A DNA stretch of 64,000 nt from positions 96,001 through 160,000 of IMG/VR virus record IMGVR_UViG_3300034684_000299. One strand, 5' to 3'. Of the stretch, positions 2,136 to 56,883 are shown one piece after another; the first letter of the stretch is position 1; every line of letters starts with the position of its first letter. Origin of the DNA: a virus. A program made the position numbers and the translations under genes. Under the pieces are notes generated by a model. That model worked only from the letters and a program-made list of their open reading frames with translations, did no database searches and had not been told where the DNA came from.

Positions 2136-5100
2136 TCACAAACACTTAGAATTGCCACAACTCAAGCAGGTTACACACCCCTCCGCATATTGTAAACTGT
2201 TTATTGCCCCACACACAGGGCATACTGAATTTCCTTCCTCATCAATATAAACATGATTTTTAGAATCATATTTCATATCTTTCATTTCTTCTTTTGTATA
2301 ATGTGTTTTCTTATTTACTTCTTTTTTGAAATATAATCTTGGTATATCTTTGATTATATTTTCCATTTCTTCTCCTATAGTTTTTGCATAAGTTCCTTTA
2401 GTCTTTTTTAGTTGTTTTATTATTTCGTCTGGGGACACACCAGCTCTTAAGGATATAGAAGCCAATCTACCAATGATCTCAGCAGTTTCATGACCATTGG
2501 ATAAAAAAATTTCTGATGGTGAGAAATTTTCTGGGTCTATTGTAATATTCATGTATGTCGTACCTTCTTGTGTTTTTACTTTTTTCGTTATACTTGGCAT
2601 AGTTTCTAATCTTGGTTTTGGTACAATTTTCTGTTTTTGATCCAAAAAGAAAGTAAATCCATCTACAGTATGTTTAGATTTTTTTGGTTCTTTACTTTTA
2701 GTAGTCAAAACTTGTGTTTGCAAACTACCATCTCTATAAATAGTAATACCTTTGACAAAATGTTTCATAGCTTGCAAATATATATCTTTAATATCTTCTA
2801 CTGTTGCTTCCTTTGGCATATTTATGGTTTTAGATACAGAAGCGTCTATATACTCTTGAAACGCTACTTGCATATATAAATGATCTATTGGTTTTATAGT
2901 TTGAGCAGTAACAAAAACCTTTTTCAGTTTTTCATCGATTTTATCTGAATACATAAGATTGTTCAAATCCATTATATCTTCTTCAAGTTTAGCTAGCTTA
3001 GGTACTTCTTTATAATTTTCAACTTTAGCAGCTTCACTTTGAAATTCTTCAACCTTATTCATTATTTCATTGTAATACTCTATATCTGTTTCTTTTAAAA
3101 ATGATTTTAATTCGTTGTTGATGTAAATTAGTGGTACTCTTTTGCCATCTTTATTAAGCATAAATCTGGTATATACCAAAGCAAAATTTGGTTCTAATCC
3201 AGAAGAGACATCAGCTAAATTAGATATAGACCCTGTTGGAGCTATTGTATTCAATTGAACATTCCTTTTATATTTTTTACCATCTGTTGAAAAATGTTCT
3301 ATTATTTTTTCGTTCAATCTTTTCAAATTATCAGTAAGGTCAGCTATCTCATCTGAATCTGTATGTAAAGGAAATGGAATATGTCCTTGCGGATATTTAG
3401 ACTTATCAAAATCAAGAAAATTACCTTTCTCTTTTGCTATTTCAGAACTTGCAACATGTGATAAATAAGATATAGCAGCTTGCATTTCCACCGCAATATT
3501 TCTAGCTTCTTTACTATCATATGGTATTCTTTTATTGTACAACATATCCGCAAATCCCATTATACCGAGTCCTAAAAATCTTTGTTCCCTAGCAGTTTTT
3601 TCTATTTCTTCTAAAGGATACACATTCATGGTAACAACGTCATCTAAAAACATAATGGTGTATCCTACTATTTCTTTAAATTTTTCAAAATCTGGAGTAC
3701 CTATTTTATAAAACTCTGGTAATTTCTCATTTATTATTTTCACATTCAAACTACCTAAATTACAAGATCCATGATTTGGTAATGGTTCTTCACCACAGTT
3801 GTGACATACCAATCCATTGACTACACCTGCATGTGTTTTTTCCATAGAAAAGTCATACACAGGTTCAATATCGTTCTGTACAATTTCAACCACTTTTGGT
3901 GAATTTTCTCTTATTGATTCTTTCACAGAATCTCTGTACTCTATATCAAAATAAGATTTGTATAAGATTTTTCTACCTAACATGTTACTAGCACTTTTCC
4001 AATTCAATGTCTCAGCATCATATACCTTATGGTCAGGAGTAACTCTTAATTCTTTGCCATTACTGAGCTTTAATGTTATTGTGTTCTTAGTTCCTGTTTT
4101 AAATACTTTTGATTTTACAAACTCTTTATCAAAAGGTGACCATACCATCACCGTTTGCCCGTCTAGTTCACCTATACTTATTTCACCTTTATCTGTTAAT
4201 AGTTTCTCATTATAAGCAAAACATGGATTTGTAGCAGTAACTGGAGTATTGTCTGAATTAGCATAATATTTGTTATGTCTGCCTAAGAACAATAAACCAG
4301 GATCACCAGTACCCCAAGCATTTTTTGAAATAATATCCAAAAATTCTCTTGCTGATACTTCTTTGTATTTTTGTCCATTAAAAACTAAGCTGAATTTATC
4401 ATCATGTTCATATTTATCTAAAAAGCTTTCTGGATCATCTATATTAACCGATATATTGAAATACGATAGTACACTATTACCATCGTTATTCTTTTTAGAG
4501 TTAATAAAATCCATAATATCGGGATGGTCATATCTCATTACAGCCATCTGTGCTGCTCGCCTTTTACCACCCTGTTGTATAGTAGAAGCGGTTGCATTGT
4601 ACACCTGCATAAAAGAAATAGGTCCTGAAGAATATCCAGAAGTACCATGTACTAATGCCCCTTTTGGTCTTAACACGCTGAAATCATACCCAACACCACC
4701 ACCATATTTCAATATAAGAGCTGCTTTTTTTGCATAATCAAATATACCTTCCATTGAATCGTCTTCAGTATAACTGACAAAACATGCCGATAACATATCG
4801 TGTCTATTGCGAGATTCATATATGAGCTCGTAATCCTTTAAACTCATCTCTTTTATATCTTTTTGGAACCATTCAATCGGCATAGCTTCTCCAGCATTAA
4901 ATAAAGTAGGAGAATTTGGAAGAAATATTCTTTTATTTATTAATTCATAATATATTTCTTCTTTTACCTTTATACGTTCCAAAAGTTCGTCATCTTCTAA
5001 TTCACTATCTACACCTTCTGCCGCCGCTATATATCTAGCCACTCTTCTTGCAACATCGCTCCATGTACTTTCAACATATTTGTCATTTCTCTTTGCAAAA

Positions 5101-7005: not shown

Positions 7006-7262
7006 GTCAACTACCCCACCCTATAGAGGGTGGAGCTTGTGATTAACAAGCTCAGTTGATTAGCCTCAGCCAGGGGGTATTAACCCTATCGGGCTACGTT
7101 ATATGGGAATATATAGTCACCATAGGATGCTCCACAAGTCCTATGCTCTGAGGGCAGTGGTTAAACATATCTGAGGGTAGGAGAAGTGCTGCTGCCATAC
7201 AAAACCCCATATAACATTGGCGATGTGGACTTACCACTACTTTGTAGTGAGTTATTACTCTT
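7006..7262 (+). ncRNA. IscB omegaRNA (HEARO-type)
   Basis: Structured leader directly 5' of iscB (CTACGTT..., AACATTGGCGA motifs) with homologues at 35324 and 55340. Confidence 0.8.
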
Positions 7263-8632
7263 TAAGGAGGGTTAATGTGGTATTTGTAATATCTAAAGAA
7301 GGTAAACCTTTAATGCCTACTAAAAATCATGCTAAAGTTAGAATACTACTAAAACACAAGAAAGCTAAAGTTATTAGAAGAAAACCATTTACTATTCAGC
7401 TTCTATATGAAACCACTACCTATACACAGCCTATTATACTTGGAATAGATAGTGGCTACAGTTATATTGGTTTTTCTGCTATTACTGAAAAGGAAGAACT
7501 AATATGTGGCGAAGTTAAACTAAGAAATGATATATCTGAGCTTCTTAAAGAAAGACGGATGTATCGTAGAATTAGGCGCAATAGACTTAGATATAGGAAA
7601 CCTAGATTTGATAACAGAATTTCATCTAAGAAAGAAGGTTGGTTAGCGCCCTCTATTAAACACAAGTTAGATTCTCATGTTAGGTTTATTAATTATCTTA
7701 AAAAGATATTGCCTATAGCTAACATAGTTGTAGAAGTGGCAAATTTTGATACTCATAAACTTAAAAACCCAAACGTAGTTGGTAAAGGTTATCAACAAGG
7801 TGAACAACAAGATTTTTGGAATGTAAGAGAATACGTTCTGTATAGAGATAATTATACCTGCCAGCTATGTGGCAAGAAAAACACCATACTTGAGGTACAT
7901 CATATAGGCTATTGGAAACAAGATAGAACAGATAGACCAGGCAATCTAATAACATTATGCACCAAATGCCACAATCCTAATAATCATAAAGAGGGAGGTA
8001 AATTGTATGGAATGAAGCCTGTTCAAAAACCATTAAAAGACGCAACATTTATGTCTACTATAAGATGGAAATTGGTCAATGCGCTGATGTGTGACTACAC
8101 TTACGGTTATATTACAAAATCCAAAAGAGTAAGTCTTGGTTTGGAAAAGACACATTATAACGATGCATTTTGCATAGCAGGTGGAATTAATCAACAGAGA
8201 ATAGAGCCTATCTATTTTGAGCAAATTAGGAGAAACAATCGTTCACTCGAAAAGTTCTATGATGCAAAATATGTTGATATAAGAGATAAGTCTATTAAAC
8301 CAGGACAAGAGCTTTTCTGTGGTAGAAGGACACGGAACAAAAACTTAAATGAAGAAAATCTTCATAAGTATCGTGGAGCTAAAAAATCAAAAGGCAGAAG
8401 AAATATTCGTAAGCAAAGATACGCTTATCAGCCTAAAGATATCGTTATCTTTAAGGGCAAAAAATATTCAGTTCAAGGTGTACAGAACAAAGGTAAATAT
8501 ATTAAGCTAATGGAAATGTCTAAGCCAGTCAAAACAGATTTAGTTAAGCCCTATATGTTTAGGAAAGGATTTAGTATGTTTTATAACTGCAATTCATCCC
8601 CCACTTACAGAAGTGGGAGTCTTCTTGCAGGA
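7006..8632 (+). mobile_element. IS200/IS605-superfamily IscB element
   Basis: Left-end hairpin GTCAACTACCCCACC..GGTGG, HEARO-type leader, iscB, and right-end hairpin CCCCACTT..AAGTGGGA. End coordinates approximate. Confidence 0.8.
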
Positions 8633-8638
8633 AAATGA
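7277..8638 (+). CDS. iscB: IscB RNA-guided endonuclease (RRXRR/HNH)
   Basis: PLMP motif, RuvC-I GIDSG, Arg-rich bridge helix, RuvC-II VVE, HNH (CQLCG..HH..NLITLCTKCH) and RuvC-III HYNDA. GTG start behind AGGAGG. Confidence 0.93.
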   Translation: MVFVISKEGKPLMPTKNHAKVRILLKHKKAKVIRRKPFTIQLLYETTTYTQPIILGIDSGYSYIGFSAITEKEELICGEVKLRNDISELLKERRMYRRIRRNRLRYRKPRFDNRISSKKEGWLAPSIKHKLDSHVRFINYLKKILPIANIVVEVANFDTHKLKNPNVVGKGYQQGEQQDFWNVREYVLYRDNYTCQLCGKKNTILEVHHIGYWKQDRTDRPGNLITLCTKCHNPNNHKEGGKLYGMKPVQKPLKDATFMSTIRWKLVNALMCDYTYGYITKSKRVSLGLEKTHYNDAFCIAGGINQQRIEPIYFEQIRRNNRSLEKFYDAKYVDIRDKSIKPGQELFCGRRTRNKNLNEENLHKYRGAKKSKGRRNIRKQRYAYQPKDIVIFKGKKYSVQGVQNKGKYIKLMEMSKPVKTDLVKPYMFRKGFSMFYNCNSSPTYRSGSLLAGK

Positions 8639-11479: not shown

Positions 11480-12640
11480 ATGTTAAAAACTTATAAATTT
11501 AGATTATACCCAAACGAAGATCAAAAAGTTTTAATTGAAAAACATATTGGTGCTTATAGATTTATATATAATTTTTTCTTAGAATATTCTACTAAAGCTT
11601 ATAAAAACACCAAAACCTCTACCAATGTATATAATTGGATGAAAGAATTAACTAAATTAAAAAAGACTAAAAAATATTCTTGGTTAAATGAAATAAATAG
11701 TCAAAGCCTTCAAGATAGTTTGTTTAATTTGGATAGAGCTTATCAAAGATTTTATAAAAAACAAACTGGTTATCCTAAATTTAAAAAGAAAAATAAAGTT
11801 AAATGGTCTTTTAGTGTTCCCCAATATATTAAATTAGAATATTCTACTAATAATATTAAATTTGGATATTTGTTTATACCTAAATTTAAAAAAGATCCTA
11901 TTAAAGTTCGTATTCATAGAATATTACCAAATGAATATAAAATTAAAACTGCAACCATTGTTAAAACTAAAAGTAATAAATATTATGTTTCATTAGTTAT
12001 AGAATACCAACCGCAAGAAAAAAATATTTCTTTTGTAAAAGTAATACCAGATGGAATTGGTATTGATGTTGGTATAAAAGATACTATTGTTTTAAGTAAT
12101 GGTGAAAAATATAATTATCCTATTAATTCTAAAAAATATGATAAAAAACTTAAACATCTTCATAAATCATTATCACGAAAATATAAATCTGATCAACCAA
12201 GATCAAAAAATTTTGAAAAAGATCGTATAAAACTTGCTAAAACTTATGAAAAAATTAATAATATAAAAGAAAACTGGATTCATCAAATTACCAAGAAATT
12301 AGTTGCTGAGAACCAAGGTAGCTATTTTTTCTTGGAAGATTTGAATATCCGAGGTATGTTTAAAAATCATAAATTAGCAAAAGAAATACAATTTCAATCT
12401 TGGTATAAATTTAAAGAAGTATTAACATATAAATCCATTTGGAATGGCAAACAAGTTATCTCTATCAATAGATATGAACCAAGTACTAAAACATGTTCTA
12501 AATGTGGTTATATAAATAATAATTTAACTTTAGATGATAGAAGTTGGACATGTCCAAATTGTAATTCATATCATGATAGAGATATCAATGCAGCCATAAA
12601 TATTAAAAATTTTGGTATCAACCAGCTGGTAGCTGGATAA
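11480..12640 (+). CDS. tnpB: TnpB RNA-guided endonuclease
   Basis: HTH N-terminus, GIDVG, LEDL, CSKCG/CPNC Zn finger, DRDINAA. Confidence 0.95.
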   Translation: MLKTYKFRLYPNEDQKVLIEKHIGAYRFIYNFFLEYSTKAYKNTKTSTNVYNWMKELTKLKKTKKYSWLNEINSQSLQDSLFNLDRAYQRFYKKQTGYPKFKKKNKVKWSFSVPQYIKLEYSTNNIKFGYLFIPKFKKDPIKVRIHRILPNEYKIKTATIVKTKSNKYYVSLVIEYQPQEKNISFVKVIPDGIGIDVGIKDTIVLSNGEKYNYPINSKKYDKKLKHLHKSLSRKYKSDQPRSKNFEKDRIKLAKTYEKINNIKENWIHQITKKLVAENQGSYFFLEDLNIRGMFKNHKLAKEIQFQSWYKFKEVLTYKSIWNGKQVISINRYEPSTKTCSKCGYINNNLTLDDRSWTCPNCNSYHDRDINAAINIKNFGINQLVAG

Positions 12641-12760
12641 ACTACCCTACCGTAGGAACTACGGGAAGTTAAGCCTTTGGAGACTGTGTAAGACTTGCTA
12701 TCATAGAAGCAACGGTCTATGAATTAGGAAGCCAAGCCCTTTAGGGTTTGTGTAGTTCAC
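12610..12760 (+). ncRNA. TnpB omegaRNA (right-end RNA) scaffold
   Basis: Overlaps the tnpB 3' end and the right end. Shares GTTAAGCCTTTGGAGACTGTGTAAGAC and GATGAATTAGGAAGC-like blocks with 56864-57003. Confidence 0.7.
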
Positions 12761-20492: not shown

Positions 20493-20530
20493 AAAAGAGG
20501 AATGAACACGCTTCCTCTTTTTTTTACTAT

Positions 20531-20783
20531 GTGAACTACTTACCTCTAAAGAGGTAAGCTTCCTAATTCATCGACCGTTGCGACAATGAATGCCCGTCTT
20601 ACACAGTCTCCAAAGGCTTAACATCCCCCAGTTCCTGGGGTAGAGTTCTTTTAAGTAGGAACTAACTGCAATACAATTATATCACATTCGTAAGTAATTA
20701 ACAACGATTTTTGCCTTAAATTAGCCTTGTATTTTCAGCTTTCATCTCTCCAATAAATTGGAGAGTGTTCTCGCTGAATTTTC
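20531..20783 (-). mobile_element. Non-autonomous IS605-type element carrying only the ends and the TnpB omegaRNA
   Basis: Reverse complement of 20531-20670 is near-identical to 56864-57003. 20735-20783 matches the left end at 55572. TTAT lies 5' of the left end. Confidence 0.88.
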
Positions 20784-20844: not shown

Positions 20845-21246
20845 ATGGATAAAATGAAAGTAGTAAGGAGAAAGAAAAAAGTATTGCTGTTAAACGAATT
20901 AGGTCACGACGTAGCCTCCTGGAGATTTAAAAGTCTCCAGAAGGCAGAAAAAGCAAAAAAGGAAATGAAAAAACAAAACTTAGAAGAGATTTACATGAAA
21001 GTAAAACAAAGGTGGGAACACAAGGAAGTCGAAGTACCACCTTGTGATTTACACGACCTTATAGTGTCGAGAAAAAAAAGGTTGGAAAAATGGGAGCGTT
21101 TGAGGAAAGTCAAATTGGCACATCCAGAAATATTTGAGCATTTAGAATTTGTTGAAGAAGAACCAAGTGTGCTTAACATTTGGTTCTATAGGGGCATAGA
21201 AAATAAGAGAACCGGTCACGATATAAAGTTTTTCTGGGAAGAGTAA
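20845..21246 (+). CDS. Hypothetical basic protein
   Basis: SD-led 133-aa Lys/Arg-rich ORF. Confidence 0.7.
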   Translation: MDKMKVVRRKKKVLLLNELGHDVASWRFKSLQKAEKAKKEMKKQNLEEIYMKVKQRWEHKEVEVPPCDLHDLIVSRKKRLEKWERLRKVKLAHPEIFEHLEFVEEEPSVLNIWFYRGIENKRTGHDIKFFWEE

Positions 21247-21300
21247 GGAGAGTGTCAATACTCTCCTTACTCTCCTTTTTTTAAAAAGGAGGTATAAGGA

Positions 21301-21591
21301 ATGACATATTTGGGTAATGCTTTCTCCCTTCAAATGTTGGCGGAGATTCCGTCAACTTTGAAAGTGGAAGAGGTTTCTTGGGGAGAAATTCCCGCGGGAG
21401 TTGTTTCAGTTGTCGGACACCAAGACACGGCCCGTGTCTTGGGTGTTCCGTTTAATAGAGTATCTATAACGTTGGAAAAGGGTGACATTTTATATGTTGC
21501 CCAGCTCCAAGGAGGACGTCTCCCAGAGGGGGCTACCACGCTCCCCGAGGGATTTAGTTTTAAATATTTGAAAGTCGAGATTGTTGATTAA
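21301..21591 (+). CDS. acrIII-1: AcrIII-1 family viral ring nuclease (DUF1874, STIV B116-like)
   Basis: YLGNAFSLQML N-terminus, VVGHQDTA (catalytic His motif), NRVSITLEKGD, YVAQLQGGRLPEGATTL; 96 aa. Confidence 0.85.
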   Translation: MTYLGNAFSLQMLAEIPSTLKVEEVSWGEIPAGVVSVVGHQDTARVLGVPFNRVSITLEKGDILYVAQLQGGRLPEGATTLPEGFSFKYLKVEIVD

Positions 21592-21754
21592 TCTCGACTT
21601 TCCTCCAACTAAGCACATTTTCCGTTCAGCTTAGTTGAAGTATGAACGAACGGATAGGTTTGCAGGCGTTGCCCCGCTACGTCTGCAAAACCGAAAACTA
21701 ATGCGGGGCTGCATTTCAAACCTAGCAGAATAAACTGTTGGGTTTGAAATGCAG
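21571..21754 (+). ncRNA. Structured RNA module: hairpin, two tandem H-type pseudoknots and a 19-bp hairpin (tmRNA H5/PK2/PK3-like)
   Basis: Stems read directly from the sequence: 21571-82/21590-601; 21606-14/21629-37 with loop 21621-27 pairing to 21648-54; 21657-69/21679-92 with loop 21671-77 pairing to 21703-09; 21710-28/21735-53. G-U pairs favour the plus strand. Confidence 0.65.
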
Positions 21755-21813
21755 AATTCTCACCTCGCTTCATAGAATCACTCCTCACCTCCTAAACACA
21801 TGTTTATTTATTG

Positions 21814-21860
21814 GGAACGTGCGTACAGGCAGGCGTACGTTCCATCTTTTTTTTATTTTT
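21814..21860 (+). terminator. Hairpin + T-tract between the pseudoknot module and the TLD
   Basis: GGAACGTGCG/CGTACGTTCC stem followed by a long T-run. Confidence 0.6.
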
Positions 21861-21875
21861 TTTATTTTTTATTTT

Positions 21876-21948
21876 GGGGACGAATGGGATTGACAAGGAT
21901 ACTGGTGCACATCCTTGGATGCGGGTTCGATTCCCGCCGTCTCCACCA
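21876..21948 (+). ncRNA. Minimal tmRNA-like RNA: tRNA-like domain only (73 nt)
   Basis: Acceptor GGGGACG/CGTCTCC with G3-U70, A73 and CCA. T arm GCGGG-TTCGATT-CCCGC. Stemless D-loop ending GAC. 6-bp H2a closed by a 10-nt loop. Confidence 0.8.
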
Positions 21949-21986
21949 GTTAGCTTCAAAAATTTAATTAGAAAGGAGGGAAGAAT

Positions 21987-22190
21987 ATGTTAACAGACAA
22001 AGAAATCTTTCAAGAAGTTTTAGATGTTATTGAAGGGAGGAAAAAAATAGAAGAAGTAGATGATATAGTCAGATGGGAATATGAAAGATGGATCAGATAC
22101 ATCAACGGTGGTATTCCCATTGAGACAGTTCTGAGAGAGTTGAAACACAGGTTGGAAACAGGAAACTTCCATCCTGAGTATGAAGAATAA
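21987..22190 (+). CDS. Hypothetical protein
   Basis: AGGAGG SD, 67 aa. Confidence 0.7.
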   Translation: MLTDKEIFQEVLDVIEGRKKIEEVDDIVRWEYERWIRYINGGIPIETVLRELKHRLETGNFHPEYEE

Positions 22191-22208: not shown

Positions 22209-22237
22209 TTGACAAAAAGAGAAAAAAGTAGTATCAT
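22209..22237 (+). promoter_or_regulatory. sigma70 promoter of the Y RNA-tRNA-rsr operon
   Basis: TTGACA-17 nt-TATCAT; the first Y-like RNA starts 9 nt downstream. Confidence 0.8.
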
Positions 22238-22245
22238 AAATATAT

Positions 22246-22304
22246 GGGGTGGTGTGTGAAACGGTTACTTCGGTTGAGAATAATACCGTTTCCAGTTGTT
22301 CCCC
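22246..22304 (+). ncRNA. Short Y-RNA-like RNA (Ro-binding stem only)
   Basis: GGGG/CCCC closing stem and GAAACGGT/ACCGTTTC stem. Shares the TGGTGT, TACTTCG and TGTTCC motifs with the next two RNAs. Confidence 0.6.
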
Positions 22305-22322
22305 TCATTTTATAGAAAAAAG

Positions 22323-22461
22323 TACTACGTTGGTGTAGTGAAGAGTTACTTCGCCTATTAAGCGGGAGGTCGCAGGTTCAAATCCTGCCTGTATGCTTCG
22401 GCATACAGTAGCTCAGCGGTAGAGCGCCATAAATTACTCTTCACGCCTGTTCCACGTAGTA
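22323..22461 (+). ncRNA. yrlA: YrlA-like Y RNA with permuted tRNA-like domain
   Basis: Outer stems TACTACG-TGG/CCA-CGTAGTA and GTGAAGAGT/ACTCTTCAC enclose a T arm (GCAGG TTCAAAT CCTGC), an acceptor-like stem capped by UUCG, and then a D arm (GCTC..GAGC). Lies upstream of Ro60. Confidence 0.85.
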
Positions 22462-22467
22462 TTTCAT

Positions 22468-22612
22468 AGCTGTGTTGGTGTAATGAAGAGATACTTCGCT
22501 TGTTAAGCCGGTAATGCTGGTTCAACTCCAGCCTGAAGTATTCCATTGGAATACTCAGTCGTCTAACGGGTAGGACGCCGTAAATTTCTCTTCATGCTTG
22601 TTCCACACAGCT
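22468..22612 (+). ncRNA. yrlA: Second YrlA-like Y RNA
   Basis: AGCTGTG-TGG/CCA-CACAGCT and ATGAAGAGA/TCTCTTCAT (compensatory changes relative to the first copy). T arm GCTGG TTCAACT CCAGC, closed acceptor-like stem, D arm. Confidence 0.85.
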
Positions 22613-22633
22613 TTTCTTTTTTTATCATTTTTT

Positions 22634-22708
22634 TCTGGGTTAGCTCAAAGGAAGAGCAAGTGGCTGTTAACCACTTTGTTGGGGGTTCGAATCCCTCACC
22701 CAGAGCCA
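22634..22708 (+). tRNA. tRNA-Asn (GTT) with encoded CCA
   Basis: Full cloverleaf: TCTGGGT/ACCCAGA, GCTC/GAGC, AGTGG-CTGTTAA-CCACT, GGGGG-TTCGAAT-CCCTC, G73, CCA. Confidence 0.95.
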
Positions 22709-22746: not shown

Positions 22747-24069
22747 ATGAGTAAAGTAAATGTGAAGAAAAGTTCCCCTTTAAAAACCCATGAAGGAGGG
22801 CCAGCAAGAGAAATAAACGCTTTGTGGAAGTTAAAACGTTCTCTCATGGCCTGTTTGCTCTGGGAAGATACCTTCTACGAAGAAGGTGTTGACATTGCCC
22901 AGAGAATAGAAACATTAGTGAGTGAAGTAAAACCCGAAGAAGCAAAAAATCTAGCAATTGAAGCTAGAGAGAATATGAAGATTAGGCATGCACCTCTTTG
23001 GGTAGTTCGTGCTATGGCACGATTACCTGAACACAAAAGACTAGTGTCTGAGACGCTGGAAAGAGTGATTCAGCGTCCAGATGAATTAACAGAATTTTTA
23101 GCTCTTTACTGGTTAGATGGGAAACAACCTCTATCTAACCAAGTAAAGAAAGGATTGGCGAAGGCGTTTACAAAATTTGACGCCTATCAACTCGCCAAGT
23201 ACAACAGGGATGGGCAAGTGAAACTGAGAGACGTTATGTTTCTCACCCATCCAAAACCGTTAAACTTAGAACAGGAAGAAATATGGAAACAACTCGTGGA
23301 TGGTACTTTACCTTCTCCAGAAACATGGGAGGTAGAATTATCTGCGGGGAAAGATAAAAAAGAAACATGGGAAAGATTACTTTCCCAGAATAAATTAGGA
23401 GCTCTAGCTTTATTAAGGAATTTGAGAAACATGGAAGAAGTCGGAGTGAATAGAAAATTAATTATTGAAGCACTCCGACGTATGAAAACTGAAAAAGTTC
23501 TTCCATTTAGGTTTATTGCTGCTGCGAGATATGCTCCTTCACTAGAACCATACCTTGAGGAAGCAATGTTTAAATGTATTCCTCAAGAGAAAATAATTCA
23601 AGGTAAAACAATTCTATTAATTGATGTCTCTGGTTCGATGGAAAGGGCTCTGTCTGAAAAATCAGATATGACAAGAATGGATGCAGCAGCAGGACTTGCC
23701 ATCTTAGCTAGAGAAATGTGTGAAGAAGTAAATGTATATACGTTTTCAGATAATGAAAAATTAGTACCACCTCGAAGGGGATTTGCTCTTCGAGATGCAA
23801 TAGTTAATAGTCAGTCTCACAATGGCACTTATCTTGGTAGGTCAATAAGTGCTATAAATCAAAAAGAACAATATGATAGAATAATAGTATTTACAGACGA
23901 GCAATCTGCAGATTCAGTACCTGCTCCGGAATCTAGAGGTTACATGATCAATGTAGCCAATTACGAGAATGGAGTAGGCTACGGATCTTGGACACACATT
24001 GATGGTTTTTCAGAAGCTGTCATAGATTATATATTGGAATATGAAAAATTGATTAATAATAATTATTAG
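22747..24069 (+). CDS. rsr: Ro60/Rsr RNA-binding protein (TROVE + vWA)
   Basis: THEGG N-terminus, FDAYQLAKY, LRDVMFLTHPKP, TWEVELS, ALLRNLRN, LPFRF, LIDVSGSM (MIDAS), VFTDEQ. Confidence 0.93.
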   Translation: MSKVNVKKSSPLKTHEGGPAREINALWKLKRSLMACLLWEDTFYEEGVDIAQRIETLVSEVKPEEAKNLAIEARENMKIRHAPLWVVRAMARLPEHKRLVSETLERVIQRPDELTEFLALYWLDGKQPLSNQVKKGLAKAFTKFDAYQLAKYNRDGQVKLRDVMFLTHPKPLNLEQEEIWKQLVDGTLPSPETWEVELSAGKDKKETWERLLSQNKLGALALLRNLRNMEEVGVNRKLIIEALRRMKTEKVLPFRFIAAARYAPSLEPYLEEAMFKCIPQEKIIQGKTILLIDVSGSMERALSEKSDMTRMDAAAGLAILAREMCEEVNVYTFSDNEKLVPPRRGFALRDAIVNSQSHNGTYLGRSISAINQKEQYDRIIVFTDEQSADSVPAPESRGYMINVANYENGVGYGSWTHIDGFSEAVIDYILEYEKLINNNY

Positions 24070-35323: not shown

Positions 35324-35580
35324 GTCAACTACCCCCGTCTAAAGACGGTGGCTTGTAATAAGCAAGCCCTAGTTGATTAGCCTCAGCCAGAGTCGCAAGA
35401 CTATCGGGCTACGTTATATCGGAATATATAGGTACCATAGGATGCTCCACAAGTCCGATGCTCTACGGTCAGTGATTAAACATCTCTGAGGGGTAGGAGA
35501 AGTGTTGCTGACAACAAACCCAATATAACATTGGCGATGTGGACCTACCGCTTAACAGCGGATTTATCCTCGAAAGAGGA
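35324..35580 (+). ncRNA. Stand-alone IscB omegaRNA (no iscB ORF)
   Basis: High identity to 7006-7262 (GTTGATTAGCCTCAGCCAG, CCATAGGATGCTCCACAAGTCC, AACATTGGCGATGTGGAC). Followed by a hairpin instead of an ORF. Confidence 0.85.
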
Positions 35581-55339: not shown

Positions 55340-55555
55340 GTCAACTACCCCACCCTATAGAGGGTGGAGCTTGTAAAAGCTCAAGTTGACTACCCTAAGT
55401 CCTTCGAGGACTACGTTATATAGGTCATAACACCTACGGGCGTTTCTCCTAACTCGTAGCTCTGTTGCTTAACTTTAAACAATCCTGTGAGGTAGGGATA
55501 GTGAGTTAAGTGTAAAAAGCCTATATAACATTGGGGAAGGAGACATTACTCCAAA
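55340..55555 (+). ncRNA. Third IscB-type omegaRNA; downstream iscB replaced by a TnpB element
   Basis: First 30 nt identical to 7006; CTACGTTATA, TTAAACA and ATAACATTGG blocks; ends in SD + ATG. Confidence 0.8.
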
Positions 55556-55719: not shown

Positions 55720-56883
55720 ATGTTGAAGACATATAAGTTTCGTATATACCCAACAGAAGAACAAATTGAGAAGTTGAACCAGCATTTCGGACATACTCGA
55801 TTTGTATATAACTTGTTCTTAGAGCTTTCAAGCAATGCATATAAAAATACCAAAACGCATACTAATTACAATGTTTGGGCTAAAATGCTTGTGGCTCTTA
55901 AGAAATCCGAAAAGTATAAATGGCTGAACGATGTTAACTCTCAATCGTTACAACAATCTTTGAAAGACTTAGATACTGGCTATAAACGTTTCTTTAAGAA
56001 GCAGAGTAAACATCCGAAATTCAAGAAAAAAGCGAATAGACAATCGTTTAGAGTTCCTCAACATATACAATTGTACGAAAATGAGAGTAACGATAAATAC
56101 GGTATTCTTTTCATTCCTAAGTTTAAAGAAGGCATTAAAGTACGTATGCATCGTAAAGTACCTTCTAATGCTAAGTTGAAAAGTTGTACGATTGTTAAAA
56201 CTACTACAAATAATTACTATGTGTCTATTCTTGTGGAAACAGATGAAATCGTACCTGTAAGAGATATAGACTACAAAAATTCAATTGGTATAGATGTAGG
56301 GCTTAAGGATATGGCAATTTTGTCTAACGGTAAAAAATACGAAGTGCTCAAACCATTAGCCAAACTTGAGAGAAAACTAAAACGTGTTCAAAAGAAACTT
56401 TCAAAGAAAGTTCTATATTCCAAGAATTGGCATAAAGCAAAATTAGAGGTGGCTAAAGTACATGAGAAAATTAAGAATACAAGAGAGGATTTTTTACATA
56501 AACTAACGAAGGAAATCAGCGAGAACCAAGCTGATGTCTTTTTCGTTGAGACTCTTAATATAAGTGGCATGTTAAAGAATCATCATTTAGCTAAAAGTAT
56601 CTCAGATGTAAGTTGGTACAAATTCAAGACGTTTCTAAAATACAAAGCAGAGAGGTTAGGTAAGAAGGTAATCGAGATAGGAATGTTCGAACCTTCGTCT
56701 AAGATTTGTAGTGTTTGTGGATATAAGAACAAAGATTTAGAACTCTCTGATAGAGAATGGATATGTCCTGAATGTGGTACCAAACACGATAGAGATATAA
56801 ATGCCGCTATCAATATTAGACAGTTTGGAATAGATAAATATACTTCCAAACCATCGAAAGAGTTGCAGTTAGTTCCTGCTTAA
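55720..56883 (+). CDS. tnpB: TnpB RNA-guided endonuclease
   Basis: GIDVG, FVETL, CSVCG/CPECG, DRDINAA. Confidence 0.95.
   Translation: MLKTYKFRIYPTEEQIEKLNQHFGHTRFVYNLFLELSSNAYKNTKTHTNYNVWAKMLVALKKSEKYKWLNDVNSQSLQQSLKDLDTGYKRFFKKQSKHPKFKKKANRQSFRVPQHIQLYENESNDKYGILFIPKFKEGIKVRMHRKVPSNAKLKSCTIVKTTTNNYYVSILVETDEIVPVRDIDYKNSIGIDVGLKDMAILSNGKKYEVLKPLAKLERKLKRVQKKLSKKVLYSKNWHKAKLEVAKVHEKIKNTREDFLHKLTKEISENQADVFFVETLNISGMLKNHHLAKSISDVSWYKFKTFLKYKAERLGKKVIEIGMFEPSSKICSVCGYKNKDLELSDREWICPECGTKHDRDINAAINIRQFGIDKYTSKPSKELQLVPA

Follow-up and report, generated by a model that had tools for sequence, protein, structure and literature searches.

A PK3–PK4 fragment of Thermotogota-type tmRNA retained behind an anti-CRISPR gene in a phage genome

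The pseudoknots PK2–PK4 of tmRNA are conserved yet replaceable for tagging, and their role has long been unclear. The main one credited to them is folding and maturation of the molecule, and no partner other than ribosomal protein S1 is known to bind the pseudoknot ring (PMC3968760). In the permuted tmRNAs of Alpha- and Betaproteobacteria and Cyanobacteria (RF04321), the molecule is in two parts and the gene order is non-standard, with an acceptor piece first and a coding piece second, which together rebuild the tRNA-like domain (TLD) and keep the tag frame. Both full-length and TLD-only tmRNAs are already known from phages. The TLD-only case is mycobacteriophage DS6A, whose gene is described as little more than a TLD, with no mention of a separate pseudoknot piece, and in E. 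coli a molecule consisting of the TLD alone is a strong inhibitor of tmRNA (PMC4131195; PMC11915505). Here we describe a phage locus in which a TLD is accompanied by a second, unlinked piece of tmRNA. The locus lies within a 64,000-nucleotide stretch (the window), bases 96001–160000 of the 185-kb IMG/VR phage record IMGVR_UViG_3300034684_000299. A full-text literature search returned no report of a separately retained PK3–PK4 fragment on an mRNA.

Beyond the stop codon of an AcrIII-1-type gene there follow, in order, pseudoknot A, pseudoknot B, a 20-bp hairpin, a C/U-rich box, an intrinsic terminator and the TLD (Table 1). The Acr ORF matches Pfam PF08960 at E 4.6e-5 and 23.9 bits, slightly below the 26-bit cut-off; it has 2712 homologues at E ≤ 1e-10, and PF08960 is present in 120 of the 120 of those listed. 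A 133-residue ORF upstream has no relatives in IMG/VR. Together with Y-RNA-like genes, the tRNA-Asn and the Ro60 gene, the latter two downstream of the TLD, AcrIII-1 forms an RNA-focused island. The pseudoknot module occurs once in the 185-kb phage genome, and a repeat or mobile element is thereby ruled out.

Table 1. Features of the anti-CRISPR/tmRNA-fragment locus, in window positions
Feature	Position	Strand	Remarks
AcrIII-1-type gene	21301–21591	+	DUF1874/STIV B116-like, 96 aa; pseudoknot module in its probable 3′ untranslated region
Stop-codon hairpin	21570–21602	+	21570–21583 with 21589–21602, 14 pairs including one G·U; stop UAA (21589–21591) at top of 3′ strand
Pseudoknot A	21603–21653	+	Homologue of tmRNA PK3; stem 1, 21606–21614 with 21629–21637 (12 bp in relatives, 21603–21614 with 21629–21640); stem 2, 21622–21627 with 21648–21653
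AUA linker	21654–21656	+	Within conserved GGAUAGG junction PK3/PK4; invariant among phage variants
Pseudoknot B	21657–21708	+	Homologue of tmRNA PK4; stem 1, 21657–21669 with 21679–21692, 13 bp, one bulged A; stem 2, CCCCGC 21672–21677 with GCGGGG 21703–21708; loop 3, GAAAACUAAU
20-bp hairpin	21709–21754	+	21709–21728 with 21735–21754, 20 pairs; position of helix 2 after PK4 in tmRNA
C/U-rich box	21755–21800	+	Nearly invariant, single-stranded; anti-Shine-Dalgarno-like CACCUCCU motifs
Intrinsic terminator and U-rich tract	21814–21875	+	Hairpin 21814–21843 (terminator scan); tract reaches TLD
TLD-only mini-tmRNA	21876–21948	+	Acceptor stem with G3:U70, T arm, CCA; 73 nt
tRNA-Asn	22634–22708		Downstream of TLD
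Ro60/TROVE gene	22747–24069		Downstream of TLD

The architecture is largely as it had been read in a preliminary description of the window, with corrections in detail. That description gave the stop-codon hairpin 12 bp, the linker as UA and the last hairpin 19 bp; the hairpins and pseudoknots are there in the sequence, but the pairs number 14 and 20, and the linker is AUA. Its placing of a TLD about 120 nt downstream, beyond a terminator, holds: the TLD starts 121 nt beyond the 20-bp hairpin. A 196-nt stretch of the region folds at −83.4 kcal/mol (z = −9.5), and none of 200 shuffles does as well. An alternative pairing of the 3′ strand of pseudoknot B stem 2 (GCGGGG) with CCUCGC at 21763–21768 also fits all variants, and the 20-bp hairpin carries one C·A mismatch in most of them. 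A scan of the locus turned up no promoter-like site in the interval from the Acr stop to the module, nor in that from the terminator to the TLD. Inspection of the sequence at the Acr stop found no canonical slippery site as a readthrough or frameshift signal, and readthrough would add only 6 residues. The box is 91–98% identical among variants of the locus in related phages, and the terminator with its U tract of about 30 nt is 97–100% conserved. As side observations, the box (AUAGAAUCACUCCUCACCUCCUAA) is similar to the anti-Shine-Dalgarno sequence at the 3′ tail of 16S rRNA and lies directly 5′ of the terminator, like the seed of a 3′-UTR-derived sRNA.

The origin of the pseudoknots was examined with two covariance models, each built blind to the other side: R2, from three phage variants only, and R1, from 40 Thermotogota PK3–PK4 segments only. 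R2 was searched against 30 Thermotogota loci, each spanning about 3.3 kb, and 11 further tmRNAs, including those of the host clade; of these 41 Thermotogota tmRNA genes, 39 gave a full-length, right-strand match at PK3–PK4. In the first set, 29 of 30 loci matched there and filled 29 of the 30 best places, with top scores of 33.1 and 33.0 bits (E about 5e-6); in the second, 10 of 11 did so, the best at 32.4 bits, which puts the three best scores overall at E 3–5e-6. Scores reached at least 19 bits in 22 of the 39 matches, whereas the best match outside PK3–PK4 in the same searches scored 15.7 bits. The same model gave no match in the surroundings of tmRNA genes from other phyla (79 genes, 565 kb in total; best 12.2 bits) or in 252 kb of viral loci; 33 viral loci that a gapped pattern had picked out were rejected as chance matches by R2. 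In the forward direction, the top match of R1 in the window (both strands, filters off) covers 21595–21709 on the + strand from end to end, with PK3 stem 1 placed on stem 1 of pseudoknot A and PK4 stem 1 on stem 1 of pseudoknot B. At 14.6 bits (E about 0.09), this match stands little above noise, which reaches 13 bits, and among the variants R1 gives L057 just 8.4 bits and misses L053 at its module position. The forward result is weak when taken alone; the reciprocal search is decisive.

A joint alignment of the phage and Thermotogota PK3–PK4 segments gives 43–52% identity, with conserved loops, covarying stems and the motifs UCCUCC..., GAGUAU, GGAUAGG, CCGAAA and GCGGGGCUGC in common. Most Thermotogota tmRNAs have the same GGAUAGG at the PK3/PK4 junction, that is, between their last two pseudoknots, and in Thermotogota tmRNAs loop 3 of PK4 reads CCGAAA(n)...; the CCGAAA loop 3 and GCGGGGCUGC are common to pseudoknot B and tmRNA PK4. 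By eye, host-clade tmRNAs read ...GGGUAAUAGG (13-bp stem) CG-GUCCGC-AA (stem) CCGAAAACUGAUUGCGGACUGCG, and the phage counterpart reads ...GAACGGAUAGG (13-bp stem) UG-CCCCGC-U (stem) CCGAAAACUAAUGCGGGGCUGCA. From the reciprocal models and the joint alignment, we conclude that pseudoknot A is PK3 and pseudoknot B is PK4 of a Thermotogota-type tmRNA; the module very probably derives from tmRNA. The preliminary description had likened the pseudoknot-UA-pseudoknot-GAAAAC layout to PK2/PK3 of Thermotoga tmRNA; the layout is real in Thermotogota, but the homologues by R2 are PK3/PK4. Its broader proposal, that the pseudoknots are a tmRNA piece beside a tmRNA TLD, is borne out by the R2 matches.

Methods that use sequence alone return nothing here. 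BLAST and nhmmer with the pseudoknot body found no match in 158 tmRNA-bearing loci, and nhmmer with Thermotogota tmRNA profiles recovered the TLD and no other significant match from the 185-kb phage genome, with a non-significant placement (E 2.5) of host-clade tmRNA positions 225–299 on 21637–21712; such methods are therefore blind to the module. Searching with tmRNA models, a check that the preliminary description had suggested, gave a divided answer: at E ≤ 10, Rfam found no tmRNA match over the pseudoknot body in 21200–22000, but R1 placed its best window match there. Because the Rfam tmRNA model is blind at this threshold, genome annotators would miss the fragment.

Window 21603–21712 is a fragment of Thermotogota-type tmRNA that comprises PK3, PK4, the GGAUAGG junction between them and the first CUGC of helix 2, the sole remnant of that helix after PK4 in the phage. 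Against one host-clade tmRNA (L247), for which the segments compared were imprecise, only this first CUGC of the 20-bp hairpin is alike, and neither the box and terminator nor the stop-codon hairpin (compared with H5) shows a clear likeness; on this weak test, the 20-bp hairpin is without a tmRNA counterpart. The stop-codon hairpin, which had been compared to tmRNA helix 5, proves to be an analogy only. It is part of the Acr gene end, built from the last Acr codons, and it is kept in Acr relatives that have neither pseudoknots nor TLD (L065–L067) and also in L060, a locus discussed below. A one-sided U-A to U-G change in it is consistent with a + strand RNA.

Closer relatives of the Acr locus were gathered by exact-protein look-ups. 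Two of them, L053 and L057, whose Acr is 76–77% identical to that of the window, have the whole arrangement. L060 has the stop hairpin, box, terminator and TLD, with about 13 nt between the terminator/U tract and the TLD, and is missing about 21612–21771; L056 has only the hairpin and pseudoknot A. Neighboring genes are retained in both. Since the first bases of PK3 stem 1 remain in it (UUCCUCCAA), L060 more probably arose by deletion than preserves the ancestral arrangement. The module is dispensable in nature, since L060 lives without it and L056 with pseudoknot A alone. Eleven more distant IMG/VR Acr loci (57–67% identity) have neither module nor TLD, and an exact-pattern scan for the module or box in viral and metagenome contigs returned only the known L058 contig. 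L070 (482–1165) is a mosaic: its Acr is 74% identical to that of the window, its PK3–PK4 and TLD are 100% identical, and the hairpin–box stretch between them is of the L053/L057 type, so that recombination breakpoints seem, from the alignment, to fall at the borders of structural modules. Other observations concern the wider Acr family. Distant AcrIII-1 loci (L004:3274–3400, L008:3334–3460 and L003:3274–3400) have another conserved post-gene sequence, a GUUGGGUU...AUACCCAAC hairpin followed by GGGGUUCAAAUAGAAA..CCUC, which may be a further unannotated RNA or promoter element tied to this family. In L062, a 457-nt G+C-rich non-coding stretch (2795–3250) with no Rfam match at E ≤ 0.01 follows an Acr relative, and the same locus carries a Cas12f/TnpB-like fragment (380–757), about 1.7 kb 5′ of the Acr gene.

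Comparison of the variants shows that the fold of the module is under selection, because five stem pairs carry compensatory changes at about 20% divergence. The module differs by 19–21% between variants (the Acr gene by 26–27% at the DNA level), and across the aligned structure 95.8% of cells pair, versus 33–44% in slid controls. Pairs changed on both sides number 7, versus 3.4 ± 1.3 in shuffles, of which 2 in 500 reach 7; these counts are small, coming from three to four distinct phage variants. The five in the module comprise two in pseudoknot A stem 1, two in pseudoknot B stem 1 and one in pseudoknot B stem 2, where CCCCGC/GCGGGG becomes CCCCAC/GUGGGG. Helix 2 of the TLD has two compensatory pairs. 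The covariation among related phages that the preliminary description had proposed as a check is seen in three of the four pseudoknot stems, but pseudoknot A stem 2 has zero covarying pairs and draws its support from a position homologous to PK3 stem 2. G·U patterns among the variants are consistent with the + strand.

The second tmRNA piece, the TLD, is recognized by Rfam RF00023 at 65.4 bits over model positions 1–374 minus 310 internal positions. Its helix 2 has 7 bp and is closed on itself by a 10-nt loop, and its two halves are nearest to the tmRNAs of six Thermotogota genomes (G092–G097). In sequence it looks like a Thermotogota tmRNA from which the interior has been deleted. A 32-nt pattern from its 3′ part has no exact match in bacterial genomes.

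By its sequence matches, the host phylum of this phage is Thermotogota, because a CRISPR spacer, the tRNA-Asn, a 117-nt element and the TLD all match there. The entry to this phylum was a scan with the TLD 3′-end pattern, which singled out a Thermotogota genome (L096), and a 20-kb phage query was run against 151 Thermotogota genomes. A 36-nt stretch of the window (22976–23011) is 97% identical to a CRISPR spacer in genome G060, and the phage tRNA-Asn is 90% identical in G092 and G094–G096. The spacer, from an array at L253:737–1699 (G060:C1, about 719737–720699) with the 30-nt repeat GTTTATAGAATACCTATGAGGAATTGAAAC, matches Ro60 of the phage and gives direct evidence of its host phylum; a neighboring spacer is 88% identical to the Y-RNA/tRNA-Asn junction (window 22601–22642). 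That the region mimics the CRISPR repeat, as an RNA anti-CRISPR, was considered and rejected: the repeat shares only the 7-mer ATAGAAT with it, in the box and outside the hairpins. Other elements of the window were also observed. The 117-nt intergenic stretch at 20530–20646 is 97% identical to G093, 92% to G094 and 80% to G095/G096, and a 680-nt stretch (12056–12734) is 74% identical to G078; both may be small mobile elements common to phage and host. The window holds three full-length HEARO (IscB-type omega) RNAs of 146–163 bits (7006–7234, 35324–35548 and 55340–55549), at least two of which precede a long ORF (7217–8638 and 55720–56883). Upstream of the Ro60 gene lie the tRNA-Asn and tandem Y-RNA-like repeats (region 22246–22612; 22329–22455 and 22474–22606 are about 74% alike), placed under a near-consensus promoter at 22209–22237; in relatives, the Rfam YrlA matches are below threshold (33–36 bits versus a cut-off of 69; L053:4062–4126, L060:3676–3798).

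The reading that we prefer, tentatively, is that the fragment acts in cis on the anti-CRISPR transcript. The fragment was most probably captured by the phage lineage from its host phylum. The module most likely lies on the + strand and is transcribed within the 3′ UTR of the Acr mRNA, since there is no promoter-like site before it and a terminator after it. There, it may form a compact, nuclease-resistant fold that slows 3′-to-5′ decay of the Acr transcript. Damage to the transcript could plausibly come from the collateral RNases of type III CRISPR. The fold might also bind S1, the recognizer of the tmRNA pseudoknot ring, and RNA of the anti-Shine-Dalgarno box behind the module could likewise be shielded from 3′-to-5′ decay. 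Such a role matches the folding and maturation job credited to PK2–PK4 in tmRNA. The preliminary description had offered such a shield of the Acr mRNA 3′ end as its second possibility, and it stays a candidate explanation. Against it, the 3′ end already has the protection of a terminator hairpin, and the need for a further shield is not obvious. Identity and mechanism taken jointly stand, in our judgment, at an even balance.

Several other readings of the locus have to be set against this cis role. The two pieces could be released as separate stable RNAs that mimic, in trans and without a tag, a split tmRNA: the TLD would soak up SmpB, EF-Tu and AlaRS, and the pseudoknots S1 or RNase R, damping or redirecting trans-translation while host type III CRISPR RNases cut mRNA. 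Both pieces trace back to one kind of host tmRNA, with 120 nt between them, and in L070 they are co-inherited at 100% identity beside an Acr of only 74%; a TLD-only molecule does inhibit tmRNA in E. coli (PMC4131195; PMC11915505), S1 does bind the pseudoknot ring (PMC3968760), and the surrounding island of AcrIII-1, Y-RNA-like genes, tRNA-Asn and Ro60 is itself focused on RNA. Excision of the module as an RNA of its own and its binding of proteins are purely putative, however, and L060 has the TLD without the module, and we consider this reading unlikely, if still worth weighing. A stronger form of it, that the phage dismantled a host tmRNA on purpose and kept the TLD and PK3–PK4 as separate protein-binding RNAs, which would capture SmpB/EF-Tu/AlaRS and S1/RNase R during type III CRISPR RNA damage, is distinctly unlikely; if true, it would mean that the pseudoknot ring has a function of its own, separable from tagging. 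The module might instead be a neutral relic of a rearranged phage tmRNA gene with no present function. Its loss in L060 and truncation in L056 with neighboring genes retained fit this, as does the disappearance of the tmRNA parts needed for tagging. But a decaying relic should lose pairing, and the stems stay paired at about 20% divergence, having undergone five compensatory double changes and hardly any disruptive change, which counts against a relic and leaves it improbable.

The position of the module upstream of the TLD suggests, further, a leader for TLD maturation, in which transcripts that read through the terminator would carry PK3–PK4 ahead of the TLD and the pseudoknots would aid precursor folding, RNase P processing or stability. 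The lack of a promoter-like site between terminator and TLD, together with the 13-nt gap in L060, makes the TLD seem dependent on upstream transcription, and PK2–PK4 help tmRNA to fold and mature (PMC3968760). Yet the strong terminator with its 30-nt U tract intervenes, L060 manages without the module, and pairing between module and TLD is not beyond chance; a leader is accordingly quite improbable. A functional two-piece tmRNA that assembles in trans, which the preliminary description had entertained, is largely refuted and very improbable. The two tmRNA-derived pieces are adjacent on the same strand, with a stop codon in a hairpin just 5′ of the pseudoknots, but Rfam and nhmmer recovered no PK1, resume codon or tag frame, H5 or PK2 from the 185-kb phage genome, and with this message half gone the locus is neither a functional tmRNA nor one of its halves. 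The C terminus of the Acr protein, ...VEIVD, is no degradation tag. In a working tmRNA, TLD and body are joined via helix 2; here the TLD is closed on itself, a terminator intervenes, and the best body–TLD duplex is no better in energy than with shuffled bodies. With the permuted-tmRNA model RF04321, the match covers only the T arm and stays at 25.3 bits, below the 47-bit cut-off, and the order (body, terminator, then a complete, self-closed TLD in place of an acceptor piece first) is, as had been noted, unlike standard and permuted tmRNA genes alike. Finally, the box could be the Shine-Dalgarno site of a small protein on the minus strand, followed by an ATG and a 54-codon frame. The window has such an ORF (54/59 aa), with AGGAGGUGAGGAG 7 nt ahead of the ATG, and gene callers mark ORFs of 54–90 aa in some relatives. 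In L053 and L070 a stop interrupts the frame at codon 12, in L057 1-nt indels shift it, and L060 is without the ATG though the box is kept; these broken frames refute the ORF, whose likelihood is next to nil.

In general, the locus illustrates that a phage tmRNA gene can come apart into pieces that are each retained, and that one of the pieces can probably be reused as the 3′ end of an anti-CRISPR transcript. PK3–PK4 persist on their own, with neither the message nor a link to the TLD, and their fold is maintained by compensatory changes. This retention points to a function of their own, such as nuclease resistance or binding of a host protein.

Comparison with the described systems places the locus more exactly. 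The phage pseudoknots share with Thermotogota tmRNA PK3–PK4 (RF00023) a tandem of H-type pseudoknots of the same topology, a 2-nt loop 1 (UG), the GGAUAGG junction, a CCGAAA-type loop 3 and the ...GGGCUGC end. In tmRNA, however, PK3–PK4 lie between PK2 and helix 2 in one closed RNA with the TLD and tag frame, whereas in the phage they follow a protein-coding gene, precede an unrelated hairpin and a terminator, and stand apart from the TLD. With the permuted tmRNAs the locus has in common a tmRNA in two parts and a non-standard gene order, but the acceptor-first order, the TLD-rebuilding pairing and the tag frame are all missing. As in DS6A, a phage gene has been reduced to the tRNA-like domain; in contrast to DS6A, PK3–PK4 survive here as a second, unlinked fragment. 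An analogy that is functional only is offered by the 3′ UTRs of plant viruses, for example tobamoviruses, which combine an upstream pseudoknot domain with a tRNA-like structure. There, too, stacked pseudoknots come behind a viral message and ahead of a tRNA-like element, although the sequences are unrelated, the viruses are eukaryotic RNA viruses, and no terminator separates the two parts as it does in the phage.
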